DNA from: Chiloscyllium plagiosum
Lineage: Eukaryota
Direction: 5' to 3'
DNA: 64,000 nt
Assembly: GCF_004010195.1 (NCBI RefSeq)
Contig: NC_057745.1
Coordinates: 1,384,640 to 1,448,639 of the forward strand
In this document: positions 10,371 to 62,395 of the stretch, one piece after another
How the letters are laid out: each line of letters opens with the position of its first letter
Numbering within the stretch: the stretch's first letter is position 1
Notes under the pieces: model-generated
Seen by the model: the letters and a program-made list of their open reading frames with translations, nothing else
Told to the model about the DNA's origin: nothing
Database searches by the model: none
Program-made: the position numbers and the translations under genes

Positions 10371-11871
10371 GTCAGTCCAAGAATTATTGAACATTGACGA
10401 GATTCGTACGCCTAGAGTGCACACTCTTTTGTTCTGGATATTTTGTTGCTTGCTTCATTGGAATAGTATCAATGTGATTTAGTGTCAGGATGAGTAACTT
10501 ATGTGCCTATCTGAGACTCTTGTCTCTCAGGTGATAGTCCTGTTTCTCCTCTATAACATTTGCAGGTTTTTATCTGACAACTTAAGTTTCTTAGTGGCAC
10601 AGGTTTCTGATTCCAGCCAGGCTTCTGTGAGGAGAATAGGCTTTCCAAATGAGGTACATTCAAGAAGTTACACTAAACTGCTGTTACACAGCTGACAGCT
10701 AGCTAAAGTTGGATCTGATCTGCAAGTAATTATATTCGTCAATCTTTTGGATGCAAAAGGCATTTAACTAAGGGGAGCATAAGGAAAAGGAAAAATCATC
10801 CTTTGCACAGTTTGTTTTTTACCCTGAATATGTGAACTCAAAATGTAACCTTTGCAACATTTATTTGGGGATTGCATAATATGTTTCATTTTATTTTAGT
10901 ATTTCAAAAATATTTTTGGGCATTTTTCCCTTCTATTAATTTATATTGTTCTAATTTCACCAGTTTAGATGAGTGTGTGGATTATTTGAAGTGTGTCATG
11001 CAAAGTAAAATGTGCTGCTTTAACAAACCACAAATATGAAAAAAAACTTTATCACAGACTACCAATGCTGCAGAAAGGCATACAGTCTTATGGCTAACAG
11101 TATCAGTATTAAGAAGACTGAGTGGTGACTTGATGGATCTCTGTAACATTTTGAAGTGATTTGGTGGGATAGATGTAGAACAGATGTCATCACTTGCAAA
11201 TGAGACTGGAACTAGTGGCCATAAATATAAGATGGCCACTGGTCGGTAAAACACAGAAACCAGAAAGAAACCTGTTTACCCAGAGAGTGGATAAAATGTG
11301 GAACACACCTGCACCAGAATTAGGCATAATGACCAGCATATTAAGGGGAGGATTGATTTAAAAACTTGAGGAGAAAAGAAACCAAGGATATTCTGATGGG
11401 ATTACCTGGGCAGGGGGTGCGAGGAGGCATTTGTGAAACATAAACAATGGTGTGCTCATGTTGAAGCTAATAGTCTGATTATATTCTCCAAGTATTTTAT
11501 GAAAACAATTTTCTTTTGAGGAGCTGTGTGGGAGTAAGGGGAGAATCTTCTCTTTAGCATCAACATGCACATGGCTGTATTCCACATTGCAAATGGTAAT
11601 GTCTCGACAAAAAAAATTGAAAAAAGCCTTAAATTGAGGTATTCGGAGAGTATGAACTGGGTTCGTGTATGTGAAAGTGTTGTTATGATTTTTTTACTTG
11701 TCCATTTTTAAAGTTGACCTCATTATGAGTGAAGAGTTTGGCTGATCTCGTTGGAGGTATAATTGATGTAAAAATTGGGAGCTGTTGTATTGCAGTTTCT
11801 GCTGTAGTCAGTGAAATATAATGAACCTATTAGAGCCATAGTAAAATGTTCTTTCATTCCTTTGCTCCCAG

Positions 11872-11967
11872 CTGTCCAATGGAATTCCAATTGAGAGCTG
11901 GTTCATGGATAAGAATGACACAGAGCTTTTGAAATTGATCCCCTTTTTAGAGAAACTTGTAGAACTG
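11872..11967 (+). CDS. CTDSPL2: CTDSPL2 penultimate coding exon
   Basis: cag|CTG...CTG|gtaagt; [32 protein letters not shown]; phase 0/0. Confidence 0.96.
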
Positions 11968-25184: not shown

Positions 25185-25224
25185 ATGATGAAGGCAATCA
25201 TTCTTGCTCTCCTCATATTAACAG
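25185..25224 (+). CDS. STRC: Stereocilin-family gene exon 1 (signal peptide)
   Basis: ATG...ACAG|gtaatg; MMKAIILALLILT+G, phase 1; splices in frame to 27647 giving the signal peptide MMKAIILALLILTVSSG. Confidence 0.75.
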
Positions 25225-27646: not shown

Positions 27647-28465
27647 TGTCTTCAGGTAGTAGGCAGCCTCAAAATCCTGAAACCAAGTGGCAATCTGTGA
27701 ATTCAATATTCAGGAAACATAACAACACAAAAATGTCAACTAAAGAGGTAAAACTAGACATAGAAAAAAGGATTTCAGACAACATAACTCGCTCCAGTTA
27801 CCATAACTTAAGGACATTTCTGTGGAGCTTTTTGGATCCTGCCCATCATGTTGGAGCTTCCTCAATGGATTCTGCTGTACTGGAGGCCATTCAATTGGCA
27901 ATGACTAGTGCAACTCAAGCAAACAAATGGGAATTTTATTACATGATCTGGCAAGTTCTGTTCAGCAGTCAGGTTGGAGCTACAAGTTCAGAGCTGGACA
28001 AACGACTGCCCCAGATGCTTTTCTATCTCTTTCAGGACTCTACATCTTTCTTTGCATTTGTTGAAAAATTGTTGAAGCCATTGGGAGTCGACTGGAAAGT
28101 TGCCCTGAGGTCCATACAGAGTGAAGTCTGTTACATTACTTCAACCATGAGCAGAAGATCCTTCAGTGAACACATCAGAGTGTTTCTTGCACCCAGTGTG
28201 AAGTCAAATAGGTCAAGAATGGGGACTGATGCCTTCAATATTCAAAATATACTGTTGAATTTCATTAAGAAGCTGCATCAAGTCTTTTTCAATGAGTTAA
28301 AGCCCATTTGGTATTTCTTTGGTCAGAATGTGTTCCCGTTGTTTGAATCTTATATTGGTCGCAGTACAAAGCAAATCCTTTTGAAGCTAACAGACTTTAT
28401 CTTGGAACAAATGCTATTGTCGACCAGCACAATTAAACTGGATGTTAAAGGACAGTGTTCCCAAG
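27647..28465 (+). CDS. STRC: Stereocilin-family gene exon 2
   Basis: ttttccttcag|TG...CAAG|gtaaga; 819 nt open; ends KLDVKGQCSQ(G), matching human STRC EPDTNGQCQG as recalled; phase 1/1. Confidence 0.88.
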
Positions 28466-30004: not shown

Positions 30005-30029
30005 GGAATCTGAACCAGCTCCTCATTTG
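30005..30029 (+). CDS. STRC: Stereocilin-family gene exon 3 (25-nt micro-exon)
   Basis: ttttacag|GG...TG|gtgagt; (G)NLNQLLI(W) versus human STRC GNLQQLLLW; phase 1/2. Confidence 0.9.
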
Positions 30030-30875: not shown

Positions 30876-32863
30876 ATGGCCTCAGCAGCTGCTCGCAGCC
30901 CTGGCCAGGGCATTCGCAACACAGTCAGGGTGACTGTGAAGAAGGTGGAGGAGCACACACCGGTCGATCGGACAGTGTTCGTGAAGAAGATTTTGCTGGA
31001 GTGACGCGGGTTTGAAGCAGCGGACGTGTACTTGGTCAAGGTGGCGCTGAATGCAACGAATCCGTCTCAGCTGCTGCCTCTCGAGTTGGTGGACAAATGC
31101 ATTGGCTCGCGGATTCATATTGTTATGAAAAATGATAAGGAGATTGTCGGAACACTGCTTGGTTTTGATGATTTTGTCAACATGGTGCTTGAAGATGTTA
31201 CTGAATTTGAGATCACACCAGAAGGCAGAAGAATCACAAAACTGGACCAAATCCTATTGAATGGAAATAACATAACGATGCTTATTCCTGGTGGTGAAGG
31301 TCCTGAAGTATGAATGGAACCCTCTTTCAACTAAGTGAATTTTTGATTCATGTACTTCTGTTTTATGTTCACTTCTGTTTATGACAGTTTTTTTAAGAGT
31401 TTATTTTTTATGACTCCTTGCAAAAACTTGCATTTATTTTGTAGCTGGAACAAATGTATTGTCTCAGAAATGAGAGGTGAATCATGTTTGAGTGTATGCA
31501 AAACTTGATTTATTTTTAAAGAGAAAATAAAGGGTTTTCTTTTTCACTTAAAAAAAAAAGGACGTGTACTGCCTGCAGGATTTCCCTGTGGCAGGCTATT
31601 TCGATGTGACCTTCAGGAGCGTGAAGAATTGCGAGCAGCTCCTGAAGGTCTTCAAGGAGAAGGAAGGGGAACCTCTGTTCTCCATCTTGTCGACGGTCCC
31701 GTTGTGTGTGCTTCCTGCACAGAGGAGTCGGGTTGTAACAATCCAAATGTACAACCCTCACATCCCAGCAGCAGATGTCCTGACCTTCTTGAGGAGATAC
31801 GTCCAGGTCGAGGGAGAGAGTACCGATGTGGTCGATCCTTTCGGGATCTGGATCAGCAAACGACAGGTCAGGGTAACCCTGAGGGTCGATGCCAGTGGGA
31901 ACATCCTCCACCCACCCTCCAGCTTTGCCATCGGAGGAAGCAGAGGTTACCTGACATACACAGGGCAGCCAAAAGTGTGCCGAACCTGCAGGAGGTCAGA
32001 CCACATGGTGGCGGATTGTAAGGTGACCGTCTGCCGAAACTGCAAGCAGGAAGGCCACCCGATCAAGGAATGTAAGGAGGCCAAGAACTGTAATCTGTGC
32101 GGAGAGGCGGGCCACATGTACAAGGCCTGCCCAAGACGAGGGGCCGCCACCTATGCACAGATGGCCGGAGGTGGCAACATGAGCCGTGGACCGCCTAAGA
32201 CCAGCAAGGTACCACAAAACAGCACGGGAACGGTGTCTGGAGGCAGCCTGAAGGAAGGGCAGGCTGTAGCGGAGCAGACGGCAGACATCGGGGAGATGCA
32301 GCAGCCGATCCAAACTCCTTCAAGACAGACGGAGGAAATGGAAGAGGAGGGAACAAAGGAGGCAGAGGATTGGATTACTGTCAAAAGCAGGAAGAGGAAA
32401 CCTCCTAAAGCCACCCAGCGAAGGGGGAAGTGACACCTACACGACGAAGATACAGGCAGCTCTTCCGACGGTGAGGACGGGCGCAAGGAGGGTCGTCACC
32501 AGAGGAAGAGACAGCGCTGCGGGGAAAAAGGGCAGCACCGCCCAAGCAGGAAAGGACGATCCCTCTGAGGGGATGGGTAAAGCCCTCCCCCCACCCGGTG
32601 AGAACCAAGAGGTACCCACCGGCCCACAGCTCCAGGTAACTGGGAGCAGCGGTCCTGTGACAGCCCCGCTGTCAGATGGAAAACTGGACTATGCGGACCC
32701 TGGGCCCGACCCGAAGACACCAGAGCGGGGAAATGGCTTCAGCGTGGAGCCGGACACCTACCTCAGCCCTGGGAGGTCCAGCAGTTTGCCGTCACCATGG
32801 GGATGCACACAGCTACCCCAGAGGGGCAAGACCAGCAGCAAATGGACAGTGTCAACCTTGTAA
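30876..32863 (+). pseudogene. Tx1 ORF1 (gag-like, ZCCHC3-like), disrupted
   Basis: MASAAARSPGQGIRNTVRV...; TGA at 31002-31004; LSM5 insert at 31033-31559; resumes DVYCLQDFP...YFDVTF; knuckles CRTCRRSDHMVADC, CRNCKQEGHPIKEC, CNLCGEAGHMYKAC; stop at 32431-32433; true 3' end uncertain. Confidence 0.85.
31033..31559 (+). pseudogene. LSM5: LSM5 processed pseudogene (retrocopy); coding part 31041-31313
   Basis: Intronless (V)[29 protein letters not shown]...[19 protein letters not shown], near-identical to LSm5; start codon reads GTG in CAAGGTGGCG; 3'UTR, AATAAA 31526-31531, A10 at 31550-31559; TSD GGACGTGTACT at 31022-31032 and 31560-31570. Confidence 0.95.
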
Positions 32864-32872
32864 GCTGTTAAA

Positions 32873-35800
32873 ATGGGGTTAAAAATTGCCAGCATCAATG
32901 TGCGTAGCATCAAATCGGCTACGCGATGTGTTTCTACGATGGCCTTCCTGGCCAACGTTAAAGCCGACGTCCTGTTTCTGCAGAAGTGTGGGATACCGCA
33001 CCTCAGCAGCTACAGGAGATGGTCGAGCTTGTGGGCCCATGGGCCGTCAGTTTGATCGGGGGGCAACGATAGCCGCGCCTCCGGCCTGGGTATCCTGTTG
33101 CGAGGAGGCAACTTCACCATCTCCGAGGTTAAGGAGGTGGTGGGCGGGCGCCTCCTCGTCGCCGACGTCACGTACAGGAATGCTCCCCTGAGACTGATTA
33201 ATGTGTATGCCCCAGTGGGTAAGAGTGAACGGTTGGCTGTCCTGCAGCAGCTTCCACTGTTGCTGGCTACGTCCAGGCCGGTCATTCTGGCCGGAGACTT
33301 CAACTGTATCATTGATGCAGATGGACGATCCGGCGGGGGGAACAGTAAACTGAACACCACGTCCATAGCCCTGATGGACACGGTAAAAGATGCCAAGCTG
33401 CACGACGTCTTCAGCACCCCTGCAGATGGAGCGCGGCATAGATACACCTGGTCACGGGCAGACGGGTCTATCCGCTCAAGGATAGATTATCTATTTGTGT
33501 CCCGAACGTTCTTGGTCAGATCCACCGACATCAAGCCGGTGTTCTTCTCTGACCACTGCCTCCTGCAGGCCGACTGTCACCTACAGGACGAGCAGCGGGC
33601 TGGTAAGGGAACGTGGAAGCTGAACACAAAGCTGTTGACCCTGGGAAACGTTGAGGAGCTCAAGAGGGACTATGCAGGTTGGAGAACAGTGAAGCCCCTC
33701 TTTGAGTCCCCAGCAGACTGGTGGGAAACAGTAAAAGGGAACATCAAGAGGTTCTTCATCCTCAAAGGTGTTCAGGAGGCGAGAGAGAGGCGGGGAAAAC
33801 TGTCCCAGCTCCAGGAAAGTATGCAGAACCTGCTCCTGCTGCAGACGATGGGGGTGGATGTCACGGAGGACCTCAACAGCCTGAAGGAAGAAGATGGCTA
33901 GATAACGTCATCTCAGGCTGACGTCATGAGGATCAGTAAATCCTTCTATGCCAGTCTGTATGACGCGAAGCCGACCGACAGCGCGGCCTCCCAGTCGTTC
34001 CTGTCCTCTATCATGGAGGTCTTAGACGACAGAACACGCGAGAGGCTGGACCAGCCGCTATCTCTGGACGAGCTGACCAAGGCCGTCGAGTCCTTCGAAA
34101 AGAATAAAACTCCCGGATGCGACGGCTTACCGGTCGAGATCTATTCTGCTCTGTGGGACTTGATTGGCCAGGACATGCTGGAGGTGTATGTCAGTATGCT
34201 TCGAGCAGGTACCATGAGTGAATCCATGAGGAAAGGCATCATCACCCTCATCTACAAGCGGAGGGGGGAGAAGGAGGAACTCAAAAATTGGAGACCAATC
34301 TCACTATTGAATGCAGATTACAAAATTCTGTCAAAGGTAATCGCCAACCGGGTCAGGTCTGCTCTAGGGTCTGTGATTCACCCTGACCAAACCTGTGTTG
34401 TGCCGGGCAGGAAGATCGCTGAGAGTCTCTCACTCCTCAGGGATACGATCGCCTATGTGTAGGTCAGAGGGTTGGACACCTGCCTGATCAGCCTGGACCA
34501 GGAGAAAGCCTTTGACAGGATATCACACAGGTATATGAGAGATGTTCTCTCCAAAATGGGCGTTGGGGAGGGAATCTGCAATTTTATCAGACTGCTCTAC
34601 ACCAACATTGTCAGTGCAGTTTCAATCAATGGGTGGGAATCAGATAGCTTCCCAGTCAGATCTGGAGTCAGGCAGGGCTGCCCTCTCTCTCCTGCCTTGT
34701 TTGTGTGCTGCATAGAGCCATTTGCCGAGTCCATCAGGAAGGATGTGAGCCTGAGAGGGGTGACTATTCCCGGCAGCGGGGGCCTGCAAGTTAAGGCCTC
34801 CCTGTACATGGATGACGCCGCCGTTTTCTGCTTGGATCCGCTGTCCGTGCGCAGACTCATGTGCATATGTGACCAGTTCGAACGGGCCTCGGGGGCCAAG
34901 GTAAACTGAGGCAAGAGCGAGGCCATGCTCTTTGGGAACTGGGCCGACCAATCCTCGATCCCCTTCACCGTCAGGACCGACCACCTGAAGGTGCTGGGTA
35001 TTTGGTTCGGGGGAGCTGGGTTGTGCACCAAGTCTTGGGAGGAGCGTATCAGCAAAGTGAGGCAGAAACTGGGCAGATGGAAGCTTCAGTCGCTCTCCAT
35101 CACGTGGAAAAAACCTGGTCATCAGGTGTGAGGCACTGTCATTGCTATTATACGTGGCACAGGTCTGACCTATTCCCAGAACCTGTGCCGCTGCAGTCAC
35201 CCGGGCTATCTTCCAGTTTATATGGAGGTCAAAGATGGACCGGGTCCAAAGGGACTCGCTGTACAAAGATCTGGGCAACGGGGGAAAAAAATACACCCAA
35301 TGCCACCCTCACCCTGATGGCCACCTTTGTGTGTGGCTGCATCAAGCTGAGCATGGATCTCCGGTACGCAAACACCAAGTGTCACTACGTACTGAGGTTC
35401 TACCTGTCCCCGGTGTTGCGAAGGATGGGCCTGGCCTCGCTGCCGCGGAAAGCTCCGAGTAGTTGGACCGTTCCGTATCACCTGTCCTTCGTGGAGAAGT
35501 TTATGAAGAAAAACACCTTTGACCACAAGTCCATCAGGAAGTGGTCAGCACGTAGTGTCCTTGAGACCCTTCGGGAAAAGGAGAGGGCGGATCCTATCGA
35601 GCGGTTCCCTGAGCAGACTGTCAAAGCCATTTGGCAGAATGCCTCATTGCCAGAACTTTCCAACAAGCACCAAGACATGGCTTGGCTGGTGGTGAGAAGG
35701 GCTCTGCCTGTGAGATCCTTTATGCACGCCCGGACTCTCAGCCGCACCGCACGCTGCCCTCGAAGTGGCTGCGGGGGGGGAAGGAGACTGTCACACACCT

Positions 35801-36145
35801 CCTTCTGGAATGTGCCAACGCAGAAGAAGTCTGGCGAGGAATGCAGTGGTGTTTGTCGAGGTTCGTCCTGAGCAGCGCCGTGACGTGGGACTCCGTGCTC
35901 TACGGCCTGTTCCCCGGGACGCACACCCAGACAAACATCAACTGTGTCTGGAGGATCATCAACTCGGTGAAGGACGCTCTCTGGGCGGTCCGAAACCTGT
36001 TGATCTTCCAGCTAAAGGAGTTGACCCCGACTGAGTGTTGCAGACTGGCACATTCCAAGATCCAGGGCTACGTGTTGAGGGACACGCTGAAGCTTGGGGC
36101 AGCTGCTGCCAAGGCGCGGTGGGAAAAGACATCTGCCTGCCTAAG
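32873..36145 (+). pseudogene. Tx1 ORF2 (APE endonuclease + reverse transcriptase + C-terminal CCHC), several stops and frameshifts
   Basis: KIASINVRSI, VLFLQ, AGDFN, RIDY, SDH; KTPGCDGLP, NWRPISLLNADYKI, LDQEKAFD, GVRQGCPLSP, YMDD; CPRSGC..ETVTHLLLEC. Stops at 33053, 33899, 34460, 34907. Confidence 0.92.
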
Positions 36146-36799
36146 AAGAACAGGGGGCCCACGTAGTCATTTGGGATTTGCCGACGCCTCCGCTGAAAAT
36201 GTAATCGTACAGACCTGTAAATAGGAATGGTTACTCTGTTTTCGGTATGCAAACAAATGGAATGTTTACATATGTATGGCATGTCCAGTTGTACAGATCA
36301 TCAAAGTATTTTATGAATAAAGTATATTTTTGAAATAAAAAAAGACTTGGGACAAAACAAGAATAGGATTTTTCAAGTCTACATTTAAATAGGCACAAGG
36401 ATGAAGCAAACACAAAGGCTCTATATTCTAACAAAATATTGTAGATGCTGGAAATCTAAAACACAAACATAAACTGCTGGAGCAACATAGCAAGTCTGGC
36501 AGCATCTGTGAAGAAAAACAGCATTAATGTTTCAAGTCCAATAGAACTCACTTCAGAACGGAAAGAGGTTGGAAAGTGGTGGTTTTAATTCTGTAAATAA
36601 AGATAGAGGAGAAGCAAGAGGAGCGGATGTTGTGGATGCTCAGAGCTAAAAACAATGGGGTGGTAATTGTGGTGAAAGAGAAGTAGAGCTTTAACTGAAT
36701 GTGTGAATGGTGTGAAAATAGGTCTTCTGAGAGCAAACAAATCATGGCTCATGATTTAACAAAAAGGGCAGAGGTCATGCTCTGAAGTTGTGGAATTCA

Positions 36800-41833: not shown

Positions 41834-43548
41834 ACACTTGCTTGCTGAATTGGCAGATTTGTTCTCAGACATTTCGTCACCATGTTAGATAACATCATCA
41901 GTGAGCCTCCGGTGAAGCGCTGGTGTTCTGTCCCGCTTTCTATCTGTCTGTCTTGGCCTGTTGTGGTGGGTGAAATCACTGGTTCTTTTTCTGAGAGGTT
42001 GGTACATGGGGTCCAAATCGATATGTTTGTTACTGGAGTTCCAATTTAATGCCAGGCCTCTAGGAATTCCCGTGCGTGTCTTTGTTTAGCCTGTTCCAGG
42101 ATGGATATATTGTCCCAGTTGAACTGGTGTCCCTCTTCGTCTGTGTGTATGAATCCTAGTGATAATTGGTCATGTTTTTGGTAGCTAGTTGGTGCTCATG
42201 TATCCTGGTAGCTGGTTTCCTGCCCCTCTCTCCAATGTAATGTTTGTTGCAGTCCTTGCAGGGTATTTTGTATATTGTTGGGACAGTGTCCTTTAAATTC
42301 AGCAGTAGCTGTTTCAGTGTGGTGGTATGTTTGTGGGGTACCATGAAGCCTGGTCGTCATCTCCGAGATATCTTTCATGTATGGCAGGGTGGCTAGAGTC
42401 TCTGGGCGTGTTGTGTTGTCTTGTTTAGGTTTGTTATGTAGAAATCGGCAGACTGGTCAGTGTGTGTGGCTTTCCTGTGAACTGGGTCCGCTATGTGGAT
42501 GAAACCTTTGTCATCACAAAATGCAACAAATTAGAAGAAATCCACAAATATATAAACACCATCCTTAACAGTATAATGCTCACCAAAGAGGAAGAGAACA
42601 ACAACAGACTCCCCTTCCTAGACGTTATGGTAGAATACAAAGCCAATGGAGAGCTACAGACCGGCATTTACAGGAAAGCCACACACACTGACCAGATATT
42701 CAATTACAGGAGCAATCGTCCCACAAACTGAACTGCATCAGGACATTATTGAACTGAGCCACAACACACAGCAGCACCCAGGAATTACGAGAAGCTGAGG
42801 AAAAAGATGTATACAACGTATTCAGGAACAACGGGTACCTGATAAGCGTAGTCCACCGATTCCTACATGACAGACCTAAACAAGAAGGCACAACATGCCC
42901 AGAGACTGTAGCCACCCTGCCATATATTAAAGACATCTCGAAGATGATGACCAGACTACTCCTAGGCATCATTGTAGCCCACAAATTTACCACCACACTA
43001 AAACAGCCCCTGATTAATTTAAAGGATCCCACACCAACAACCAGCAGAATGAATGCAATATACAAAATACCCTGTAAGGACTGCAACAAACAATACATTG
43101 GACAGACGGACAGGAAACTAGCCACCAGGATACATGAGCACCAACTAGCCATCAAAAGACATGACCAGTTATCACTGGTATCCGTTTACACAGATGAAGA
43201 GGGATACCAGTTCAACTGTGACAATACATCCATCCCGGGACAGGCTAAACAAAGACACCCATGGGAATTCCTAGAGGCCTGGCATTCAAACTGGAACCCC
43301 ATTAACAAACATTTTGATTTGAACCCCATTAACCAACTTCTCAAAATGAATCGGAAGTGATTTCACCTACCACAACAGGCCAAGACACATAAATAACCAA
43401 GCAGGACAGAACACCAGCGCTTCATCAGAGGCTTGCTGATGATGTTACCTAGCATGGTGATGAAACGTCTGAGAACAAATCTACCAGCTCAGCGAGCAAA
43501 CTTCCAACCTGAACCACAACCTGAGCTATAAACTTTCTCAAAAATCGT
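41834..43548 (+). mobile_element. Penelope-like element (RT C-terminus + GIY-YIG) with ~620-bp inverted 5' arm, 13-bp TSD
   Basis: WVRYVDETFVI, LPFLDVMV, IYRKATHTD, AIYKIPCKDCNKQYIGQTDRKLATRIHEH; ~41838-42455 is antisense to ~42850-43500; TSD ATGAAATAACTGT at 41821-41833 and 43549-43561. Confidence 0.9.
43432..43473 (+). ncRNA. Minimal hammerhead ribozyme motif (mirror copy on - strand at ~41864-41905)
   Basis: CTGATGA-tgttacc-tagcat-ggtgat-GAAA-cGTC-tgag; the mirror copy keeps stem I ctca/tgag. Confidence 0.6.
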
Positions 43549-44623: not shown

Positions 44624-45077
44624 ATGATCTGTGAGGTTGTAAACAGAATGGGTATTCTAGAATTCTACTGTGCTTGAATAAGGATCCAGGTATTGAATGA
44701 CAGACTGCTCAATTTTGATTTGCACTCATTCAACACTTGATCACAATTCAGAGCAGTTGACATTGCGAAGTTACTGTTACAATGAGTAAACACAACAGCA
44801 ACTTTAATCACAGTCAGAGTCCTCCATCAGCATTGAGCTGAAAGAAGAGTTTGATTGATTGATGTTTGCTGATCATGCTGGAGTGGAGGAATGTTGGCAA
44901 GAAATGCAGTTCTGTTTCTCAGGGTTATCTATGTAGTATGCAGTAGCCCTGAGGGAGACCGTCCAGCCTATCCTATCTGTGCCACCTTTTTAAAAGAGCT
45001 ATCCAATTAATCCCATCCCCTACTGTTTGCCATAGCCCTTCAGATTTCCACCTTCAAGAATTTATTCAATCTGTTCA

Positions 45078-47532
45078 GTCATAGAGTCATACAGCATAGA
45101 AACAGACCCTTCGGTCCATCTGGTCCATGCAGACCAAGTTTCCTAAACTGAACGAGTCCCATCTGGGCGTGCTCGGGCACTTATCCCTCAAAACCCTTTC
45201 TATTCATTTATCTGTCTGAATGTCTTTTAAATGTTGTAAATTGTACCAACCTCCTCCACTTTCTCTGGCAGTTCATCCCAAATATGCACCACCTTCACTG
45301 TGAAAGAGTTGCACCTCAAGTCCCTTTTAAATCTTTTCCCCTCTCACCTTAAACCTATCCCTTCTGGCTTTGGAATCCCCTATCCTGAGGAAAAGACCTT
45401 GGCTATTCACCTTATTTGTGCTTCACATTATTTTATAAACCTCTATAAGGTCCTCCCTGAGCTTCCAATGCTCCAGTGAAGGAAGCTCTAGCCTCTCCTT
45501 ATAACTCAACCCCTTCAGTCTTGGTAACATCCTTGTAAGTCATTTTTGCATCCTTTCTAGTTAAATAACACCCTACAGAAGGACAACCAGAATTCTACGC
45601 ACTGTTCCAAAAATGACCTCACCAATGTCTTGTACCACCACAACAAGACATTCTAATTTCTGTACTCAGTGCTCTGATCAATGAAAGCAAGCATGCCAAA
45701 CACCATCTTTATCACCCTGTATAACTGTGATGCCACTTTCAAGGAACTATGTACCTTTATCCCTAAGTCTCTCTGTTTGATAACACTCCACTGGGCCCTA
45801 CCATTAATTGTGTAAGTCCTGCCCTGGTTTGTCCTTCCAAAATGCTTTACCTCTCATTTATCTAAACTAAACTCCATCTGCCACTCCTCGGCCCTTTGGC
45901 CTATCTGGTCAAGATCTTGTTGTACTCTTACTTAACCTTCGCTGTCCACTATATCACCAATTTTGGTGTCATCTGCAAAGTTACTAAACATGCCTCCTAT
46001 ATTCTCATCCAAATCATTGATGTAAATGACAAACAACAGTGGACCTTGCACTGATCCTAGTGGCAAACCACTGGCCACAAGCCTCCAGTCCAAACAACAA
46101 CCCTTTATCACCACCCTCTGTCTCCTATCAACAAGCCAATTTTGTGTCCAATTTGTTAGCTCTCCCTGGATCCCAAGTGCTTGAACCTTATTAACCAGTG
46201 AAACCTTGTCAAAGGCCTTGCTAAAGTCCATGTAGACAACCTCTACTGCTCTGCTTTCATCTGTGGTCGCCTCTTCAAAAGGCTCAATGAAGTTTGTGAG
46301 ACATGATTTCCCGTGCATAAAACCATGCTGACTGTCTCCAATCAATCTTTGCCTTTCCAATTGTATGTAAATTCTGTCTGTCAGAATCCCCTCCAACAAC
46401 TTACCCACCACTGACATCAGGCTCACTGGTCTATAGTTCCTGGCTTTTCCTTACCACGTTTCTTAAATATACCACAACATTAGCCATTCTTCAGTCTGTG
46501 GCACCTCACCTGTGGCTTTTGATGCTACAAATATGGCATCAAGGGACCCAACAATCTCTTCCCTACCTTCCCACAATGTTCTGGGATACACCTGATCAGG
46601 TCCTGGGGATTTATCTATCTCTTTCTGTTTTAAGACCTCCCACACCTTCTCTTCTGTATTATGGACACTTTCAAGACATTATATTTATTGACTCAAGTTT
46701 CTTCATTTTAGTGTCTTTCTCCACATTGAATATTGATGCAAGATATTTGTTTAGTATCTCACCCATCTCCTGTGATCTCACATGTTATCACTCTTTGACC
46801 TTTAAGGGACCTATTTTCTCCCTAGTTGTTCTTTTGCCCTTAATGTAGTTATGGAATCATGTTGGATTCTCCTTAACCTTATCTGCCAAAGCTATTTTGA
46901 GTGTCCTTTTTGCTCTCCTGTTTTCTCTCTCAAGCGTACTCCTATTCCCCAATACTCTTGAAGAGATTCACTTGATCCAAGCGGTCTATACCTGACACAG
47001 GCCTCCTTTCTCTTGACCAGAGCCTTAATATTTCTAGTCATTTAGTGTTCCCTTCTTCTACCAGCCTTGTCCTTCACTCTACCAGGAACATACCATCACT
47101 GAACTCTCATTATCTCACTTTTAAAAGCCTCCCACTTGCTAGTCATCCCCTTACCTGCGAATACCCTCCCAATCAACTTCTGAAAGTTTCTGTCTAATGC
47201 TGTCAAAATTGGCCTTGCTCCAGTTTAGACCTTTAACTTTTAGACAAAGCCTATCTTTTACCATGACTATTTTAAAGCTCATAAAATTATGGTCATTGGT
47301 CCTAAAATGCTCTCTCACTAACACCCCAGTCACTTGTCCCGCCTCATTTCCCAAGAGGAGTTTTGCTCTTTGTATGTTAGGAAAGAAAATCTTGAACATG
47401 CTTAAGAAATTGCTCCCCATCCAAGCCCTTAACACGATGGCAGTCCCAGTTTATGTTTGGAAAGTTAAAATCCCCTACCATTGCCACCCTATTGTTCTTA
47501 CGGATATTTCCCTGGATATTTTCTGCTTACTT
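45078..47532 (-). mobile_element. HER1/CR1 LINE running into the gap
   Basis: Minus-strand ORFs KSPGPDQVYPR, SLMSVVGKLLEG...SQHGFMHGKSCLTN...MDFSKAFDKV...GSVQGPLLF...FADDTK. Confidence 0.9.
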
Positions 47533-48032
47533 NNNNNNNNNNNNNNNNNNNNNNNNNNNNNNNNNNNNNNNNNNNNNNNNNNNNNNNNNNNNNNNNNNNN
47601 NNNNNNNNNNNNNNNNNNNNNNNNNNNNNNNNNNNNNNNNNNNNNNNNNNNNNNNNNNNNNNNNNNNNNNNNNNNNNNNNNNNNNNNNNNNNNNNNNNNN
47701 NNNNNNNNNNNNNNNNNNNNNNNNNNNNNNNNNNNNNNNNNNNNNNNNNNNNNNNNNNNNNNNNNNNNNNNNNNNNNNNNNNNNNNNNNNNNNNNNNNNN
47801 NNNNNNNNNNNNNNNNNNNNNNNNNNNNNNNNNNNNNNNNNNNNNNNNNNNNNNNNNNNNNNNNNNNNNNNNNNNNNNNNNNNNNNNNNNNNNNNNNNNN
47901 NNNNNNNNNNNNNNNNNNNNNNNNNNNNNNNNNNNNNNNNNNNNNNNNNNNNNNNNNNNNNNNNNNNNNNNNNNNNNNNNNNNNNNNNNNNNNNNNNNNN
48001 NNNNNNNNNNNNNNNNNNNNNNNNNNNNNNNN
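47533..48032. other. Assembly gap (500 N) hiding the 5' end of STRC exon 4
   Basis: Run of N; the reading frame is already open at 48033. Confidence 0.95.
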
Positions 48033-50319
48033 CAAGTCAGGCCCACTGGTCAATAAAATTTGCACTAAAGTGAATTTTATGTATACGTATCTCACCAAGG
48101 GATTAAACTTCTATGCTGATTACTGTGAGAAAAGAAGTCTCAATGTGGGGCCTTTTTCTTCTACAAGTGACACCAGACAAATTGAAGATCTGACTTGTAA
48201 TTATGATTCTTGGGTTGCTGGAGATTTGTTCAACTCTACAGATTTTGGTTATTGTGCTGTTGTAGATGAAGTTGGATTCAGAAAAACTGTCTGCCCTAAT
48301 ACGTCACTGTTGGAAAGCATCATGAAAAACCCAGCTCACTTTTGGCTGAAAGACTTCTGTGATAGCAGTTCAAATACTATGCTTGTCCCTATGCTTATGA
48401 CTGAGGTGGTCAGTGACAGTGCCTATATTGGCTTCACTAGCAGTCCAGCCACCATTGTCCCTCCTGTAAAAGAAGTGGACATCCACTGTCGTTATGATGA
48501 GTGGACAGACTTCTCCATGGTAGATGATAAAGTGATCACATTTTGTGCCAGTCATGATGGTGACCAATTCACCAATGTGGTTTGCAGTGATCTATCAGCA
48601 CTTCAGGAGCTCATAAAGAACAATTTCTGGCTGGCTGACTTTTGCAATAATTACTCCATTTTGAGTGGTAACAGTGAATTCTGCATGTATGACAAGTGGG
48701 AAGAGAAACCTATAGATCCATCAATAATTTCGTTATGTTGGAGGAGTGACCAAACAAACTTTAATAAATCAGTTTGCAATGATGCAATTCTCCTAAATAA
48801 ACTGGTGCAGGATCCTGGCAATACTTGGCTCATGTCTGCCTGCAGTGCTGAGAACAGTTGTGACTATGAAGCATGGCTGAATGATCTTTCCGTGGCCTCT
48901 GCTGTTGTGGCACTCTGCAAGGAGACAGATCAAGCTGCTTTTAATCACATGGTTTGCACCAGTCCATCACTGTTGGAAATTCTGCTGAATAATTCTGAAA
49001 ACTCCTGGCTGAACAACTACTGTGCCAGCAATACACATTCCACAGTGGTCTCCAGTGTAATTCCAGAGGAAGGCAGTGATACGGTGCTGCCCCATGCCAC
49101 TGCCTACCCAACCACACAAGATCTTACGAATGCTGTGGAAAATCTTTGCCGCTATGAAAATTGGATGTACTCAGCTGTAGTAGATAGCACTGTGGTAGCA
49201 GTGTGTTTCAATACCGATAGGGAGCAGTTCAACATCTATGTGTGCAAAAACCCAGTAATTCTTCAGGAGTTATTGAAGAATGAGTTCAATCTTTGGCTGA
49301 CTGACTTTTGTAATGATTCGTCCATTTTGGCAAGTAGTGATACAGATGTGGCCACCTACTGTCACTACAGTCAGTGGACACATGAAAACGTTGATCCTTA
49401 CCTGGTAGATTTTTGTTGGAGGAATGACAAAGCAAATTTCACTCGATTTGTTTGTCACAGTAAGGCATTGCTAAGTGAGTTGTTGTTGTATCCTGAAAAT
49501 GCCTGGTTAAAATCCCACTGCAACATCCAAATCAATCCACATACAAGTGATGAGAATGAATCCTGCAGATATGAAGAGTGGATAGATGTCTCTTCTATAG
49601 ATCTTGCTGCTGTTGAATTCTGTAGTCAATATGACCTCGACAATTTTGTACAAGCTGCTTGTCACAATTCAACACGATTGTGGGGTTTGCTCATCAATAT
49701 GAGCAGCACCTGGCTCCCTAGCTACTGCTCATATGTTGAAGCAGATGGAATAAATCCTGCTGCCATGTGTATTTATTCTTTCTGGACGGAACAACAGGTG
49801 GACCCAACTACTGTGGCACTCTGCTTTGACTATGATCAGAGTAATTTCAATAAATATGTATGCCAAGATCCCAATGTGCTTCACGCATTGACCAGTGATC
49901 CAGAGAACACTTGGGTTGAGGCGGACTGCATGGAAATCAATAACTCTACCAATTCTATGGAGATCAAGATCTGCCCAATGGAAGATCTCATCTCACAACT
50001 CCAATGGACATGCACTCTGAATGCATCACAGCTATGCACATATGAACAGTTCCGATTGGGAGATATTCCGCCTCTGATTATGTGTGGTTTGGAAAACATT
50101 GGTCTGATGCTACATAACACACTTAGTGAGGACCTGACAGTAAGTCTTATGAATGCAATAAATAAGATCATCATGGTCTTAATGGCTCTGGAAGATGATC
50201 GAATTATATTCCTTCAAGTTGTTCAGAATGCTAAAAGAAGTGTCCTGCATACTGTTCTAAACTACCTGCAGAATGAGAACAACTACAGAATCAAGAAAGA
50301 ATTGCTCCACTGTTTTGGG
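48033..50319 (+). CDS. STRC: Stereocilin-family gene exon 4 (5' end in gap), at least 8 tandem four-Cys repeats
   Basis: About 2.29 kb stop-free; ends AKRSVLHTVLNYLQ...KKELLHCFG|gtaagg versus human RRSVLRTIGEYLEQ...KMELLACFS; phase 0. Confidence 0.9.
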
Positions 50320-51320
50320 GTAAGGCATAAAAAATATTAATTGTATTCATGGGAACTAAATTATATTCCTTCACTTTGATTTCCTATTATATATTCTTTG
50401 ATTCCTCCCTTTTTAGTTATTTGACTTGTTCAGATATGTTATGCTACACCTCTGGAGCAGGTGAGATTTGAGACTAGCTCTTCTGACCCAGAGGAAGTAA
50501 CACTACCACTGTGCCACAAGAGCCCAACACCTACCGTTTTATAATATCTAGTGGTAAAATGCGATCATGTGCTATGAAGCTGGGATCATCTACTATTATT
50601 ACAAGAATCTCAATATCGTTCAAGTAGTAACTATTTGTCGATCTGTCAAACTAGAACCTCTTAAAACAATAATATAAGAAATTTAGAGAGTGACACAATG
50701 GGTTAAGCTGTTATGTTTGAGTTAGAAGGTTGCATGTGAAGGTCTCACTCCAAAGATTGAGCACAAATCTAGCTTGACCTTCCCAGCCTGCAGGAAATGG
50801 GAGTGCTGCAATTTTGAAGACACTGTCTTTCAGAGGAGAAAAACCAAAGCCCTCTGCTGTTTGCCACCACAATTGGATGTAAATGATCCTAGGGCACCAT
50901 ACAAGGAAGAGAAGAAGTGTTCTCAGCAATCCTTGGACCACTGTTTCTCGCTAATATACTGATTGCTATTCCTGGTCAAATATGGGGTGAACTTGTAATT
51001 TTATATTAATGTCACCAGAAAACTTCACTGCTATTATGTGACTACAATTGATGTTACGCACCATTTATATTTCATAATGATCCTCCATTGACTGGATTTT
51101 GCTGGAAATTGTATACTGCAATTTTGGCCATTGGTTCTATTGCTATAATTTGTGGAGATACATTCTAAATAGATTTTGTAAACTGTAATGTGCTATTAGG
51201 AGGAGGTTACTGTTGTAAAATAGACCCTGTTGTGAGTCCTGACATAAGTTCCATCTGATCTGTTTGATAGGCATTGTGGTGTTAATAGGCACTCTTATAT
51301 TAACACTGTTTTTTTTTTAG

Positions 51321-51380
51321 TCTGTCCTATTGAACTTGGTGCAGAAGGAAGGAGGATCATCAGGCATGGACTTAGTAAGG
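51321..51380 (+). CDS. STRC: Stereocilin-family gene exon 5
   Basis: tttttag|...AGG|gtaatg; SVLLNLVQKEGGSSGMDLVR versus human [21 protein letters not shown]; phase 0/0. Confidence 0.85.
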
Positions 51381-51522
51381 GTAATGTATCAGTTATGACA
51401 AACATAATACAACTCATATCATGGGAATAACACAATGATCCACATTAAAGAGGGAAGCTTGCATTTGGAAGCTGATAAATGTTTATGAAGAAACTAGATA
51501 AATATGCCAGAGAGAAGTGAAA

Positions 51523-52282
51523 AGTCATGGAGATGTACAGCATGGGAACAGACCCTTCAGTCTAACTCGTCCATGCCAACTAGATATCCTAACCTAATCA
51601 AGTCCCATTTGCCAAGACTTGGCCCATATTCCTCTAAACTCTTCCTATTCATATACCCATCCAGATGTCTTTTAAATGCTGTAATTGTACCAGCCTCCTC
51701 CACTTCCTGTGGCAGCTCATTCCATACACGCACCACCCTCTGTGTGAAATTGTTGCCCCTTAGGTCCCTTTTATATCTTTCCCCTCCCACCTTAAATCTC
51801 TGCCCTCTAGTTCTGGACTCCTCCACCCCCAGGAGAAGACCTTGTCTATTTATCCTATCCATGCCCCTCATACTTTTATAAACCTCTATAAGGTCACCCC
51901 TCAGTCTCCAACGCTCCAGGGAAAACAGCCCCCGCCTATTCAGCCTCTCTGTATATCTCAAATCCTCCAACCCTGGCAACATTCTTGTAAATGTTTTCTG
52001 AACCATTTCAAGTTTCATATCATCCTTCCATTAGGAAGGAAACCAGAATTGCATGCAATATTCCAAAAGTGGCCTAACCAATGTTACAACATGACCTCCC
52101 AACTTCTATATTCAATGCTCTGACCAATAAAGGAAGGCATACCAAACATTTTCTTCACTGTCCAGTCTACCTGCACCTCTACTTTCATGGAACAATGAAC
52201 CTGCACTCCAAGGTCTCTTTGTTCAGCAAAACTCCCTGGGACTTTACCATTAAGTGCATAAGTCCTGCTCTGATTTGCTTTG
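51523..52282 (-). mobile_element. HER1/CR1 LINE 3' fragment
   Basis: ORF 51557-52018 (FTRMLPGLE...LRGDLIEVYK...WNELPQEV). Confidence 0.9.
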
Positions 52283-54245: not shown

Positions 54246-54356
54246 GAGTATCTGAAACTTTCTGCGGTCGATCTTGAAGGGGTGCTTTTTGCACTCGACA
54301 TTCAAGCTGCAAAGCAGCTCCTACAGCTTTTAAACACAAACTGGAATGGTTTGCAG
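54246..54356 (+). CDS. STRC: Stereocilin-family gene exon 6
   Basis: aacag|GAG...CAG|gtgtgt; EYLKLSAVDLEGVLFALDIQAAKQLLQLLNTNWNGLQ versus human [26 protein letters not shown]; phase 0/0. Confidence 0.85.
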
Positions 54357-55679: not shown

Positions 55680-55834
55680 ATTCAGGATGATTTGAAGCGA
55701 GTCATGGCGGCTATTTACTTCAACAGAATCCTGCTTGTCGATCCAAATATCTTTCCAGAGTTTGATAATTTCCTACCACTTCTGTCAGCATCTGAGATCC
55801 AAGCTCTTCCAGCAATCTTGGACAAAGAGCAAGT
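55680..55834 (+). CDS. STRC: Stereocilin-family gene exon 7
   Basis: tttcag|ATT (or in-frame 55686)...GT|gtgcgt; IQDDLKRVMAAIYFNRILLVDPNIFPEFDNFLPLLSASEIQALPAILDKEQ(V) versus human [22 protein letters not shown]; phase 0/2. Confidence 0.82.
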
Positions 55835-56133: not shown

Positions 56134-57475
56134 TAGAGTCATAGAGATGTACAGCATGGAAACAGACCCTTCGGTCCAACTCGTCCATGCCGACCAGATA
56201 TTCCAACCCAATCTAGTCCTACCTGCCAGCACCCAGCCCATATCCCTAAAACCCTTCCTATTCATATACCCATCCGACTGCCTCTTAAATGTTGCAATTG
56301 TACCAGCCTCCACCACTTCCTCTGGCAGCTCATTCCATACACATACCATCCTCTGTGTGAAAACGTTGCCCCATAGGTCTCTTTTATATCTTTCCCCTCT
56401 CACCCTAAACCTATGCCCTCTAGTTCTGGACCCCCCGACCCCAGAGAAAAGACTTTACCTATTTACCCTATTCATGCCCCTCATAATTTTGTAAACCTCT
56501 ATAAGGTCACCCCTCAGCCTCTGATGCTCCAGGGAAAACAGCCCCAGTCTGTTCAGGAACTCCCGTAGCTCAAATCTTCCAACCCTGGCAACATCCTTGT
56601 AAATCTTTTCCGAACCCTTTCAAGTTTCACAGCATCTTTCCGATAGGAAGGAGACCAGAATTCCACGCAATATTCCAACACTGGCGTAACTAATGTCCTG
56701 TACAGCCGCAACATGACCTCCCAACTCCTGTACTCATTATTCTGACCAATAAAGGAAAGCATACCAGACACCACCTTCACTATCCTATCTACCTGCGACT
56801 CTACTTTCACAGAGCTATGAACCTGCACTCTAAGGTCTCTATGTTCAGCAACACTCCCTAGGACCTTACCATAAGTCCTGCTCAGATTTGCTTTACCAAA
56901 ATGCAGCACCTCACATTTATCTGAACTAAACTCCATCTGCCACTTCTCAGCCCATTAGCCCATCTAGTCAAGATCCTGCTGTAATCTGAGGTAACCCTCT
57001 TCACTGTCCACTACACCTCCAGTTTTGGTGTCCTCTGCAAACTTACTAACTGTACCTCTTATGCTCGCATCCAAATCATTTATGTAAATGACAAAAAGTA
57101 GAGGACCCAGCACCGATCCTTGTGGCACTCCACTGGTCACAGGCCTCCAGTCTGAAAAACAACCCTCCAGCACCACCCTCTGTCTTCTACCTTTGAGCCA
57201 GTTCTGTATCCAAATGGCTAGTTCTCCCTGTATTCAATGAGATCTAACCTTGCTAATCAGTCTCCCATGGAGAACCTTGTCAAACACCTTACTGAAGTCC
57301 ATATTGATCACATTTACCGCTCTGTCCTCATCAATCCTCTTTGTTACTTCCTCAAAAATCTCAATCAAGTTTGTGAGACATGATTTCCCACGCACAAAGC
57401 CATGTTGACTATCCCTAATCAGTGTTTACCTTTCCAAATACATGTACATCCTGTACCTCAGGATTCCCTGAAGGA
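56134..57475 (-). mobile_element. HER1/CR1 LINE 3' fragment, young-looking
   Basis: [22 protein letters not shown]...SKFAEDTK; DKCEVLHFG; CR1 tail at ~56134. Confidence 0.92.
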
Positions 57476-57839: not shown

Positions 57840-58143
57840 ATATCGCAGGCGAACCCTGTTATCAGGTTCACGGAGATAGGATTGTTTATCTTTGTATCAG
57901 CGCAGCGAGTGAACATGCCTAATGAATATGCCTCACATAGAACGTCCAACAAATGCAATTTTTATGACTTTTGTGTTAGATGGCCATATCAATGTCAATT
58001 TAAAAGGTATGTACTCTCAATTTAAGCCAAATGCAGTCACTTGTTTTGATAAAATCCACGCATGGTCAACTGTTGTCGAGTTTGCTGTTTGGTAAAGGGT
58101 ATTATAGCAGGCTCTGCCCTTACAGTTTCTTTTATGTTTCCAG

Positions 58144-58330
58144 ATTGTACATGGTTAATCAAAGCTTTGGAAAACTGTCCAGTGACCAGAGACGAGCCTT
58201 TGCCCAATGGGCAGTGGATTCTGGGCAGTATAGCAATATCACCACATGGTCTTTGAAATTCCTGCATCAAGTCAGTAGCCTGCTGGTATACCTACCGTTT
58301 GAAAAATTTCAGCTTCTGACCCGACTACAG
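58144..58330 (+). CDS. STRC: Stereocilin-family gene exon 8
   Basis: tttccag|A...CAG|gtacta; LYMVNQSFGKLSSDQRRAFAQW...ITTWSLKFLHQVSSLLVYLPFEKFQLLTRLQ versus human [31 protein letters not shown]; phase 2/0. Confidence 0.9.
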
Positions 58331-58932
58331 GTACTACAACACAGGAATAAAAAGAGAATTTCTGTGGCAGTGTTTACATTAGGGCATCCTCTGACACTCT
58401 ATGATAGCAGTACAGAGGTATGTTTGAAGCACACAAGACCCTCTCAGACATGTTTGTTCATGAGCATATCATTTTTTAATGTTTCAGGAACATGCATTGA
58501 TCATTTGACTGTGACAAATTACCTTACACTTTTTCAGAACAATAATACAGGATCCTTTGCCTCCATCTGAGAGGATTGATTAAACCTAAGTTTATGATCT
58601 TATCCAAAATTTAGTGTTTTGAGAGTGCAGCACGTCATCATTACTGCATTGTAGCATCTGTCTAGATCTTGTGTTCAAGTGTCCGGAATGGGATGTTACC
58701 ATGCAAATGCTCCCACCTTCCTGCAAATCCCTTCCCTTTCCCATCTTTGTGTCAGGAAATGATTTGCTGTCAAGTTCCTAACAGTAATTTACTCTCTTGT
58801 TTGCATAGTCTATGAGACTGCTAACTGATGGAGTTTGTTATGTGGACTGTTTGTGCTAGTTACAATTCTCTGATATGGAACTACTGAGTGAGCTGACTGC
58901 TTTCCTTAATCTTTTTTTTATTGTATTCCCAG

Positions 58933-59048
58933 ATACTCAACTCATTGAATGTGCTGTTGATGAATAATTTAACTACAGTCCAGGAAAGGTTTGTCATTCA
59001 TAGCATCTTAAAAGAGGGAAGTGCAATGACAGCTGCTGAGTTTGAGTC
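58933..59048 (+). CDS. STRC: Stereocilin-family gene exon 9
   Basis: cccag|ATA...TC|gtaagt; ILNSLNVLLMNNLTTVQERFVIHSILKEGSAMTAAEFE(S); phase 0/2 fits both neighbours. Confidence 0.85.
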
Positions 59049-60883: not shown

Positions 60884-61016
60884 ACTGGGCAGATTGATGT
60901 GTTCTGCAACTACTCAGGACCTAAGATTCTACAAACAGAATCTGCAAGTGTTTGATATCATCAAGAAACAGATACTGAAATGCATTGGGGATCAAATCTT
61001 TGTTCCTAATGAATTG
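60884..61016 (+). CDS. STRC: Stereocilin-family gene exon 10 (gene continues beyond window)
   Basis: ttttag|A...TTG|gtgagt; LGRLMCSATTQDLRFY...IIKKQILKCIGDQIFVPNEL versus human LGPLACFLSPEELQ...VERGLLECAANG; phase 2/0. Confidence 0.87.
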
Positions 61017-61054
61017 GTGAGTTAACCTCTATCATTGAGATCCTGTCCAGACCC

Positions 61055-62395
61055 TAATCCAATTGTTGGAGATAATCCTGAGGGACAAAGTTTGCGTATA
61101 TATGGAAAGAGAAGGACTGATTAGGGATAGTCAACATGACATTGTGCATGGGATATCATGTCTCACTAATTTGAGTTTTTTGAAGAAGTAACAAAGACGA
61201 TTGATGAGGGCAGGCGGTGAACATGATCTCTTAGGACTTCAGTAAGGTGTTCGACAAGGTTCCTCGTGGTAGACTGGTTAGTGAGGTTAGATCACATGGA
61301 ATACAGGGAGAACTAGCAATTTGGATATAGAAGTGGCTCGAAGGTAGAAGACAAAGGGTGGTGGTGGAGGGTTGTTTTTAAAACTGAAGGCCTGTGACCA
61401 ACGGCATGCACAAGGATCAGTGCTGGGTCCACTGCTTTTCATCATTTATATAAATGATTTTGATGTGAACATAGGAGGTATGCTTAGTAAGTTTATAGAT
61501 GACATCAGAATTGGAAATGTAGTGGACAGCGAAGATGGTTACCTCAGAGTACAATGGGATCTTGATCAGATGGGCCAATGGACTGAGGAGTGTCATGTTG
61601 AGTTTAATTTAAATAAATGTGAGGTGCTGCATTTTTGAAAGGCAAATCAGGGCAGGGCTTAGACATTTAATGGTAAGGTTCTGGGGAGTGTTACTGAGCA
61701 AAGAGACTTTGCAGTGCAGGTTCATAGTTCCTTAAAAGTGTATTGGCAGGTAGATCGGATAGTAAGAAGGCGTTTGATGTGCTTATCTTTATTGGTCTGT
61801 GCATTGAGTCTGGGGTTTAAGAGGTCATATTGCGGCTGTACAGGACATTGGTTATGCCACTTTTGGAATATTGCATGGCAATTCTGGTCTCCTTCCTTTC
61901 GGAAGGATGTTATGAAACTTGAAAGAGTTCAGAAGAGGTTTACAAGGATGTTGCCAGGGTTGGAGGATTTGAGATAAAGGGAGAGGCTGAATCGGCTGGG
62001 TCTTTTTTCCCTGGAGTGTCTGAGGCTGATGGGTGACCTTACATAGACTTATAAAATCATGAGGGGTGATTAGACAAGGTCTTTTCCCTGGGATGGGGGA
62101 GTCCAAAACTAGACGGCATAGATTTAAGATGAGAGGTGAAGGATTTAAAAGGGAGCTAAGGGGCAATATTTTCACCCAGAGGGTGGTGTGTGTATGGAAT
62201 GGGCTGCTAGAGGAAGTGGTAGAGGCTGGTACAATTACAACATTTAAAAGGCCTCTGGATAGGTATATGAATAACAAGGGTTTAGCAGGATATGGGCCAA
62301 GTACTGGTAAATGAGACTAGATTAATGTAGGATATCTGGTCGGCATGGACGAGTTGGAAAGGGTCTGTTTCCATGCTGGACACCTCTATGACTCT
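61055..62395 (+). mobile_element. HER1/CR1 LINE 3' fragment
   Basis: [18 protein letters not shown]...KCEVLHF...WSPSFRKD...WNGLLEEVV; CTCTATGACTCT tail. Confidence 0.9.

Follow-up and report, generated by a model that had tools for sequence, protein, structure and literature searches.

Which gene encodes the long row of cysteine-rich repeats found in the bamboo shark Chiloscyllium plagiosum, how does the length of that row compare with the same region in other vertebrates, and what might the row do? The locus lies in a stretch of 64,000 nt (contig NC_057745.1, positions 1,384,640–1,448,639), here called the window, from whose first letter all coordinates are counted. It had been read, in an earlier note made from the letters alone, as one giant exon of stereocilin with a repeat expanded in sharks, which would lengthen the protein like a molecular ruler. 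The stereocilin gene STRC is a major recessive deafness gene, and its N-terminal half is without a Pfam domain.

Eight Cysteine Units in a Large Exon

The visible part of the large exon (48034..50319, plus strand) comprises 762 codons and encodes a half unit, the array, a post-array cysteine segment and the start of the stereocilin domain PF21058. An open frame runs from the edge of an assembly gap at 48034 as far as a GT donor at 50320, with an in-frame junction to the next exon at 51321. The gap (500 N, 47533..48032) hides the 5′ end and the acceptor, so that the description as a single giant exon holds for the visible 2,286 bases. About 85 codons of Stegostoma strc1 (aa ~305–389) have no counterpart in the window and presumably sit within this gap.

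Eight complete four-cysteine units of 53–55 aa lie on the plus strand of the exon, and the units and unit starts listed earlier were recovered at exactly 48196..49929. Unit 1 (48196..48360, 55 aa) is followed by a Ser/Thr/Pro-rich linker of ~41 aa, unit 2 (48487..48645, 53 aa) and unit 3 (48682..48843, 54 aa) come next, and unit 4 (48859..49023, 55 aa) is again followed by a Ser/Thr/Pro-rich linker, of ~40 aa. The row is completed by unit 5 (49147..49311, 55 aa), unit 6 (49360..49521, 54 aa), unit 7 (49564..49728, 55 aa) and unit 8 (49768..49929, 54 aa), all on the plus strand; unit 3 belongs to the even or “B” type described below, as do units 6 and 8. The partial unit noticed beside the gap is present and proves, more precisely, to be a two-cysteine half unit (C-x20-C; 48061..48126, plus strand), its cysteines at residues 10 and 31 of the visible exon translation. 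A comparable half unit lies 5′ of the array in other strc1 proteins and in STRC.

The residues C, Y, W, C, D, F, C, L, W and C are kept in all eight units, and none of 10,000 residue shuffles yielded even one full unit. Pairwise identity among the units is 23–45% (median 34%) and Tandem Repeats Finder reported no DNA-level tandem array over the exon, which speaks for an ancient array and against duplication during assembly; an assembly artefact is ruled out by these two observations together with the eight units of four other elasmobranchs. The composition is acidic (D+E 14%, K+R 4.5%), and the N-x-S/T sequons, of which several had been noticed, number 13 in the 762 aa of visible exon, 10 of them inside the array.

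The array is under purifying selection. Identity to three rays is 53–56% in the units against 17–29% in the linkers, and pN/pS is ~0.26 over 1.4 kb when compared with low-depth related-species contigs (14 nonsynonymous and 14 synonymous differences). That the large exon is dead or skipped, and so outside the working transcript, is scarcely credible. Such a reading could draw on the hidden acceptor and on the finding that four sequencing runs showed no splice joint over 48034–51450. Among these, contigs of the same-species run X1 cover parts of the exon with zero differences and cross both exon–intron borders unspliced, and hence look like DNA; run X10 (2% read) gave reads almost solely on an intronic repeat and run X11 (6% read) gave zero reads. 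Against it stand the 762 open codons with a canonical donor and an in-frame join, the conservation of eight colinear units between sharks and rays, the low pN/pS and the occurrence of the array in annotated protein models of dozens of species.

Gene Structure in the Window

Coding exon 1 (25185..25224, plus strand, GT donor at 25225) encodes a signal-peptide-like N-terminus, hydrophobic as judged by eye, in which 10 of 13 residues match Stegostoma aa 1–13. The N-terminal region continues in exon 2 (27647..28465, plus strand; 68% to Stegostoma aa 13–296 by tblastn) and in micro-exon 3 (30005..30029, plus strand), which has an AG acceptor and a GT donor. Downstream of the large exon, six later exons of the stereocilin helical body were located between 51321 and 61022 on the plus strand by tblastn to the relatives P0002, P0003 and P0004, at about 51321–51385, 54246–54356, 55680–55832, 58145–58330, 58933–59047 and 60885–61017 (ends approximate). 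The gene extends beyond the 3′ end of the window. A C-terminal hydrophobic tail, possibly of the GPI type, is present in P0002, which is 96% identical, and in P0004; the position of the tail in the shark gene falls outside the window.

Several mobile elements share the locus. Intron 3 contains a non-LTR retrotransposon (31552–36221, plus strand), which we take to be Tx1/L1-like; it is broken by stops and frame changes, its ORF1 carrying ZCCHC3-type RNA-binding domains and zinc knuckles and its ORF2 an endonuclease and a reverse transcriptase. Decayed pieces of GIY-YIG-type retroelements, presumably Penelope-like, occur at 42758–43357 and 1384–1749, with a weak Pfam match for the former only. 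One LINE family has left 3′-end copies, 70–85% identical, at 2309–3008, 6574–7262, 45077–45831, 51523–52281, 56137–56894 and 61639–62393. A short interspersed repeat lies at 50427–50525 and a further assembly gap (891 N) at 3759–4649.

Gene Identity

The assignment to the stereocilins holds at the level of the family: PF21058 starts just 3′ of the array, scoring 29.3 bits at the exon end (cut-off 26.6), and 52.9 bits in a later exon (58004–58567); the Stegostoma protein, 82% identical, reaches 337 bits. The nearest proteins are those of Chiloscyllium punctatum (P0002, 96%), Stegostoma (P0003, 82%) and Heterodontus (71%), followed by three rays. Searching with the C-terminal body yielded 105 stereocilins, with no mammal among them. 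Midpoint-rooted trees of the non-repeat, post-array body were built from 36 and 28 chosen rows, the window gene being represented by P0002 and P0003. The trees resolve two fully supported clades with sharks in both (FastTree 0.999; SH-aLRT 100). The first, STRC proper, holds frog, turtle and bird proteins together with a second shark gene and a second teleost gene; the other unites the window’s relatives with coelacanth, bichir, paddlefish and those teleost proteins that NCBI labels strc1.

The place of the STRC orthologue is taken in the tree by the other shark gene (P0062, P0068, P0059, P0069 and P0078), and P0068 shows that a separate STRC exists within the genus of the window’s shark. Orthology of the window gene to tetrapod STRC is ruled out, as it does not group with the STRC of frog, turtle and bird. 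Two 3′ exons of CTDSPL2 (10242–10376 and 11869–11967, plus strand; 94–98% identical by tblastn to CTDSPL2 as it occurs in the fused models of Latimeria and Polypterus) lie upstream of the window gene, as CTDSPL2 does in the fused Latimeria, Polypterus and Channa models; EIF3J, the neighbor on the far side of strc1, falls outside the window. Tree grouping and CTDSPL2 synteny therefore indicate that the gene is strc1, an old paralogue of STRC, and not STRC itself as the earlier note had implied. Since each clade includes sharks, the sequences point to a duplication older than the split between sharks and bony vertebrates.

The zebrafish protein named “stereocilin” (P0248) was recovered with a turtle STRC query and shows the three-unit cysteine pattern of STRC. 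Zebrafish Strc1 itself is absent from the sequences compared, its link to the second clade running through the NCBI strc1 labels and elimination. Database models merge strc1 with its neighbors CTDSPL2 and EIF3J (P0008, P0011, P0056 and P0010), and amphibian strc1 is mostly labeled “uncharacterized”; for both reasons the gene is missed by name searches.

Copy Number of the Unit in strc1 and STRC

Unit counts in strc1 are based on 60 named matches with at least four strong units, 47 of which also show an upstream anchor motif. Six units are present in 38 of the 47 anchored proteins (coelacanth and teleosts) and eight in four, namely those of Stegostoma, Heterodontus, Mobula and Narcine, all complete-looking elasmobranchs, to which the window adds its own eight. 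The remaining anchored proteins have seven (Polypterus), nine (Dallia) and twelve units (Umbra and Alosa), except for one gene model with four, the sole anchored case below six. Among proteins without the anchor motif, paddlefish has six units and Esox nine.

When the eight units of the window were made into a profile and compared with 1.84 billion cluster representatives, 31 of its 32 matches belonged to the stereocilin family; the other, P0133, was rejected as spurious (an 18-position match in a protein with no BLAST match to any stereocilin). The four-cysteine unit appears on this sequence evidence to be confined to stereocilins. The 29 matches that were new, each of which was identified by look-up, contributed Erpetoichthys (8 units), Pyxicephalus (9, with a short N-terminus), Pelobates cultripes (13), Rhinoderma (14) and the newt Pleurodeles (15). 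Three of the frog proteins fall with strc1, on a long branch flagged by the tree tool, and the short post-array part of the newt protein is closest to strc1 proteins. Counts range from 7 to 8 in bichirs, from 9 to 12 in esociforms and from 9 to 14 in frogs, amphibians being otherwise given as 13–15. In Rhinoderma darwinii, the P0110 cluster consists of eight models under at least seven LOC numbers, in one 90% cluster and on a contig of one length, which is possibly a tandem amplification of strc1 or else an artefact of assembly or annotation. Among amniotes, the unit profile reached turtle STRC alone, through two weak matches, and no amniote strc1 was found in the protein collections, whose coverage is of reptiles and birds, with no mammal in any output. 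It appears from these sequences that amniotes have lost strc1 or been reduced to one stereocilin.

STRC proper could be anchored in 81 of 119 proteins. Exactly 12 cysteines, corresponding to three units, were counted in 59 of the 81, the same pattern plus one cysteine (13) in 8, and an irregular arrangement in 6; the three-unit spacing is also found in turtle and lizard. All eight anchored cartilaginous-fish STRC proteins have 22–24 cysteines, or 5.5 units (P0059, P0062, P0063, P0069, P0135, P0199, P0204 and P0207, chimaera included). When aligned with the strc1 unit by hhalign, STRC units 1, 2 and 3 reach 70%, 71% and 98.4%. The earlier figure of about three degenerate cysteine blocks in the canonical gene agrees with the STRC of frog, turtle, lizard, bird and teleosts, each with three units, and is plausible for human, no mammal being among the 105 rows or among the 120 of 259 matches listed.

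A shark-specific expansion from three to eight, as first proposed, compares paralogues. Like for like, the sequences indicate a modest change from six to eight, and the count of eight is hardly special to sharks, given the 13–15 units of amphibians. Similar copy number across non-mammalian stereocilins, which made up half of what the earlier note had said would speak against its idea, was found. Nor does unit number follow the electric sense. Elasmobranchs, bichirs and the newt, which have 7–15 units, are electroreceptive groups, as an adaptation of the array to the ampullae of Lorenzini of sharks and rays would have it; yet the electroreceptive paddlefish, sturgeon, coelacanth, mormyrid and gymnotiform have six, and the pike relatives and frogs, which are not electroreceptive, have 9–12 and 9–14. 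We regard such an adaptation as very improbable.

History of the Array

Six-unit strc1 proteins contain two unit types in alternation. Typed by length and similarity, the units of the shark give the order A-A-B-A-A-B-A-B, and the array stays colinear between bamboo shark and rays (a crude one-residue typing disagrees at shark unit 5). Near-identical units mark gains in Erpetoichthys (95–98%), Umbra (96–100%) and Alosa (93–100%), older gains are seen in Esox and Dallia, and those of esociforms are block duplications; on these sequences, the later gains came independently across lineages. The doubling in the Alosa 12-unit model may be an assembly error, as may in part that in Umbra. Across 88 proteins, 557 of 598 units retain all four cysteines, and the other 41 show gaps or truncation and zero substitutions, so that paired cysteine loss is uninformative on disulfide pairing.

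These data bear on whether the array is a passive spacer, its units holding a binding site off the membrane and their number drifting by unequal crossing-over within one exon, free of fine selection. The repeated independent gains in Erpetoichthys, Umbra, Alosa, Esox and Dallia are what such drift would produce, every unit lies within one exon, and length is also added by other means: strc1 of Pygocentrus and Brachyhypopomus (P0157 and P0057) has a mucin-like Ser/Thr stretch of ~240–255 aa between units 3 and 4. Drift sits poorly, however, with counts that have long been stable (six in 38 of 47 proteins, eight in all four elasmobranchs and the window), with units that keep their position-specific sequence and with the near absence of anchored arrays shorter than six. 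The spacer is in our judgment unlikely, though it keeps an appreciable share of the probability.

Predicted Fold of the Unit

Folded alone, unit 8 is predicted with a pLDDT of 89.8 and a pTM of 0.74 as a short helix plus four helices, and a three-unit model reaches a pLDDT of 81.6 and a pTM of 0.40, with linkers below 50. Each unit of ~55 aa is thus predicted to be an independent bundle of four main helices, and the array to resemble beads on a string with no fixed packing between units, although the low pTM may be a limit of the predictor. The conserved Asp and Asn precede helices in the model, for which helix capping would account. Four conserved cysteines in an extracellular protein suggest two disulfides per unit, probably C1–C2 and C3–C4, a pairing to which the lone C3–C4 half units of both paralogues point. 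The earlier idea of a disulfide-bonded helical module is consistent with these models as regards the helices and with the conserved cysteines as regards the disulfides.

The module is also unnamed in Pfam, as had been suspected: neither in the window nor in eight full-length relatives does any Pfam model above cut-off cover the array. Sequence searches of the PDB with the exon, the unit profile and P0002 gave nothing significant (one designed protein at E 0.0014), and Foldseek found no match at E ≤ 0.001 with either the three-unit or the one-unit model. The best VIA-align Z-scores were 4.8 for three units and 5.2 for one unit (an unrelated ARM chain), values that establish neither a known nor a new fold, and the ESM Atlas returned no usable match, which is not evidence of novelty.

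In a molecular ruler, rigid units would stack as a rod and copy number would fix the length of the hair-bundle link. The fairly constant period (68–75 aa per unit in 11 proteins measured), the lineage-stable count and the greater length of both paralogues in cartilaginous fishes (strc1 8 versus 6; STRC 5.5 versus 3) would suit it. The models are at odds with it in predicting independent beads on disordered linkers; the linkers in the window vary from 4 to 41 aa and are the poorly conserved part in the comparison with rays, and mucin-like insertions of ~240–255 aa are tolerated in some teleosts. We found no measured link lengths for comparison. The ruler, put forward when the repeat was first noticed, is doubtful and we rate it as improbable.

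Expression

Zebrafish data support the guess that lateral-line cells are involved. By in situ hybridization in larvae, the ear is the main site of strc, and the strc-like CR293520.1 is confined to neuromasts (PMC4619078). The identifier has since been retired (PMC10299642), and we infer that it denotes strc1, because strc1 is named a lateral-line marker with reference to that in situ work (PMC9851615). Among mature hair cells of the lateral line, the tables of PMC12361438 record strc1 in 70% and strc in 0.4%; in prdm1a mutants, which become ear-like, strc rises to 73%. In ear-only data, strc1 and strc are grouped into one gene module (Moran’s I 0.10 versus 0.60; PMC9851615, supplementary file 5), from which it follows that strc1 is lateral-line-enriched, not exclusive, in zebrafish.

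Outside zebrafish, neither “strc” nor “stereocilin” occurs in the paddlefish lateral-line-enriched list (PMC5429088, one supplementary file), in which annotation gaps could hide the gene. The main text of a paper on catshark sensory organs (PMC11979771) makes no mention of it; the supplement, with its ampulla expression tables, may bear on expression in sharks. The data give no link to electroreceptors.

Proposed Role

Mouse STRC is located in top connectors and tectorial-membrane attachment crowns, according to PMC12789471, and a lectin-like tether has been proposed for the stereocilin family (PMC2628672). By analogy, the reading toward which we lean, with some reserve, is that the strc1 array may act as a compliant, multivalent tether linking neuromast bundles to the cupula. 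Strc1 would be a secreted, probably lipid-anchored surface protein with its helical mesothelin-type body near the membrane. The array, as the membrane-distal part of the ectodomain, would project as a glycosylated, acidic, disulfide-stabilized string of units on flexible linkers and tie the tip of the hair bundle or the kinocilium to the glycoprotein cupula. STRC would do the matching job with three units at the overlying membranes of the ear. Copy number would set reach and avidity loosely, not as a precise ruler, and Strc1 would be used mainly by hair cells of the lateral line. Within the open literature, no localization or knockout data for Strc1 were found.

A bolder version of the cupular tether is speculative and, taken as a whole, unlikely. 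Jawed vertebrates would have an ear/lateral-line pair of stereocilins, in which strc1 is the missing cupula-attachment protein, gripping through 6–15 uncatalogued disulfide-stapled modules that derive from the mucin-binding mesothelin domain A; the number of units would tune coupling strength, and strc1 would have been lost in amniotes with the lateral line. If so, the three units of STRC would be its binding site for the tectorial and otoconial membranes and a definable domain for DFNB16 missense variants.

The gene strc1 and its zebrafish expression were already known, and the repeat module is apparently uncatalogued. In the accessible text of the open-licence literature, no paper was found that describes the repeat, how far its copy number varies, when the duplication arose or the gap in amniotes. 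Zebrafish strc1 figures in that text as an expression marker only, its domains, repeat, age and function being undescribed; PMC11524865, as far as its available part goes, adds nothing on the repeat. The count of eight in sharks has little significance alone. The well-kept strc1 array defines a module of which STRC retains three worn copies, and so offers domain boundaries for structure work and for the reading of variants. The ear/lateral-line pair would predate the split between sharks and bony fishes, with apparently one member left in amniotes, and strc1 is a testable zebrafish candidate for how neuromast hair cells hold the cupula.

Comparison with Known Systems

Mesothelin domain A (residues 296–359; PDB 4F3F and 7U9J), considered here alongside the superhelix of mesothelin, otoancorin and stereocilin, is, like the unit, a disulfide-bearing helical subdomain of ~60 residues. 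When the unit was compared with 48,161 chains, two domain-A chains came within the best 27 (Z 3.7, rmsd 2.7, 54–55 aligned positions); numerous unrelated ARM/HEAT chains score equally high. The match is 9% identical in sequence, and domain A has one disulfide against the two proposed for the unit. Mesothelin repeats share a continuous core, according to PMC10035497, whereas strc1 units are predicted as separate beads; hhalign between the unit and the stereocilin helical body gave a probability of 0.2%, and so no sequence support for kinship. Domain A carries the CA-125/MUC16 site (PMC10035497), and the match of the models may offer a weak lead toward a binding role.

STRC, the DFNB16 gene, resembles strc1 in its signal-peptide-like start, in the PF21058 body directly after the cysteine region and in three homologous units with the spacing C-x(16–19)-C-x12-C-x19-C. 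It differs in that these units are divergent in bony vertebrates, where the CxYxxW start is kept in the last unit only. The closest counterpart is zebrafish strc1 (stereocilin 1; ZDB-GENE-110411-215, ENSDARG00000079336), to which proteins labeled strc1 by NCBI and UniRef connect the shark gene through clade, CTDSPL2 neighbor and repeat type; in teleosts, the majority of strc1 proteins carry six units of alternating type, whereas the shark has eight.
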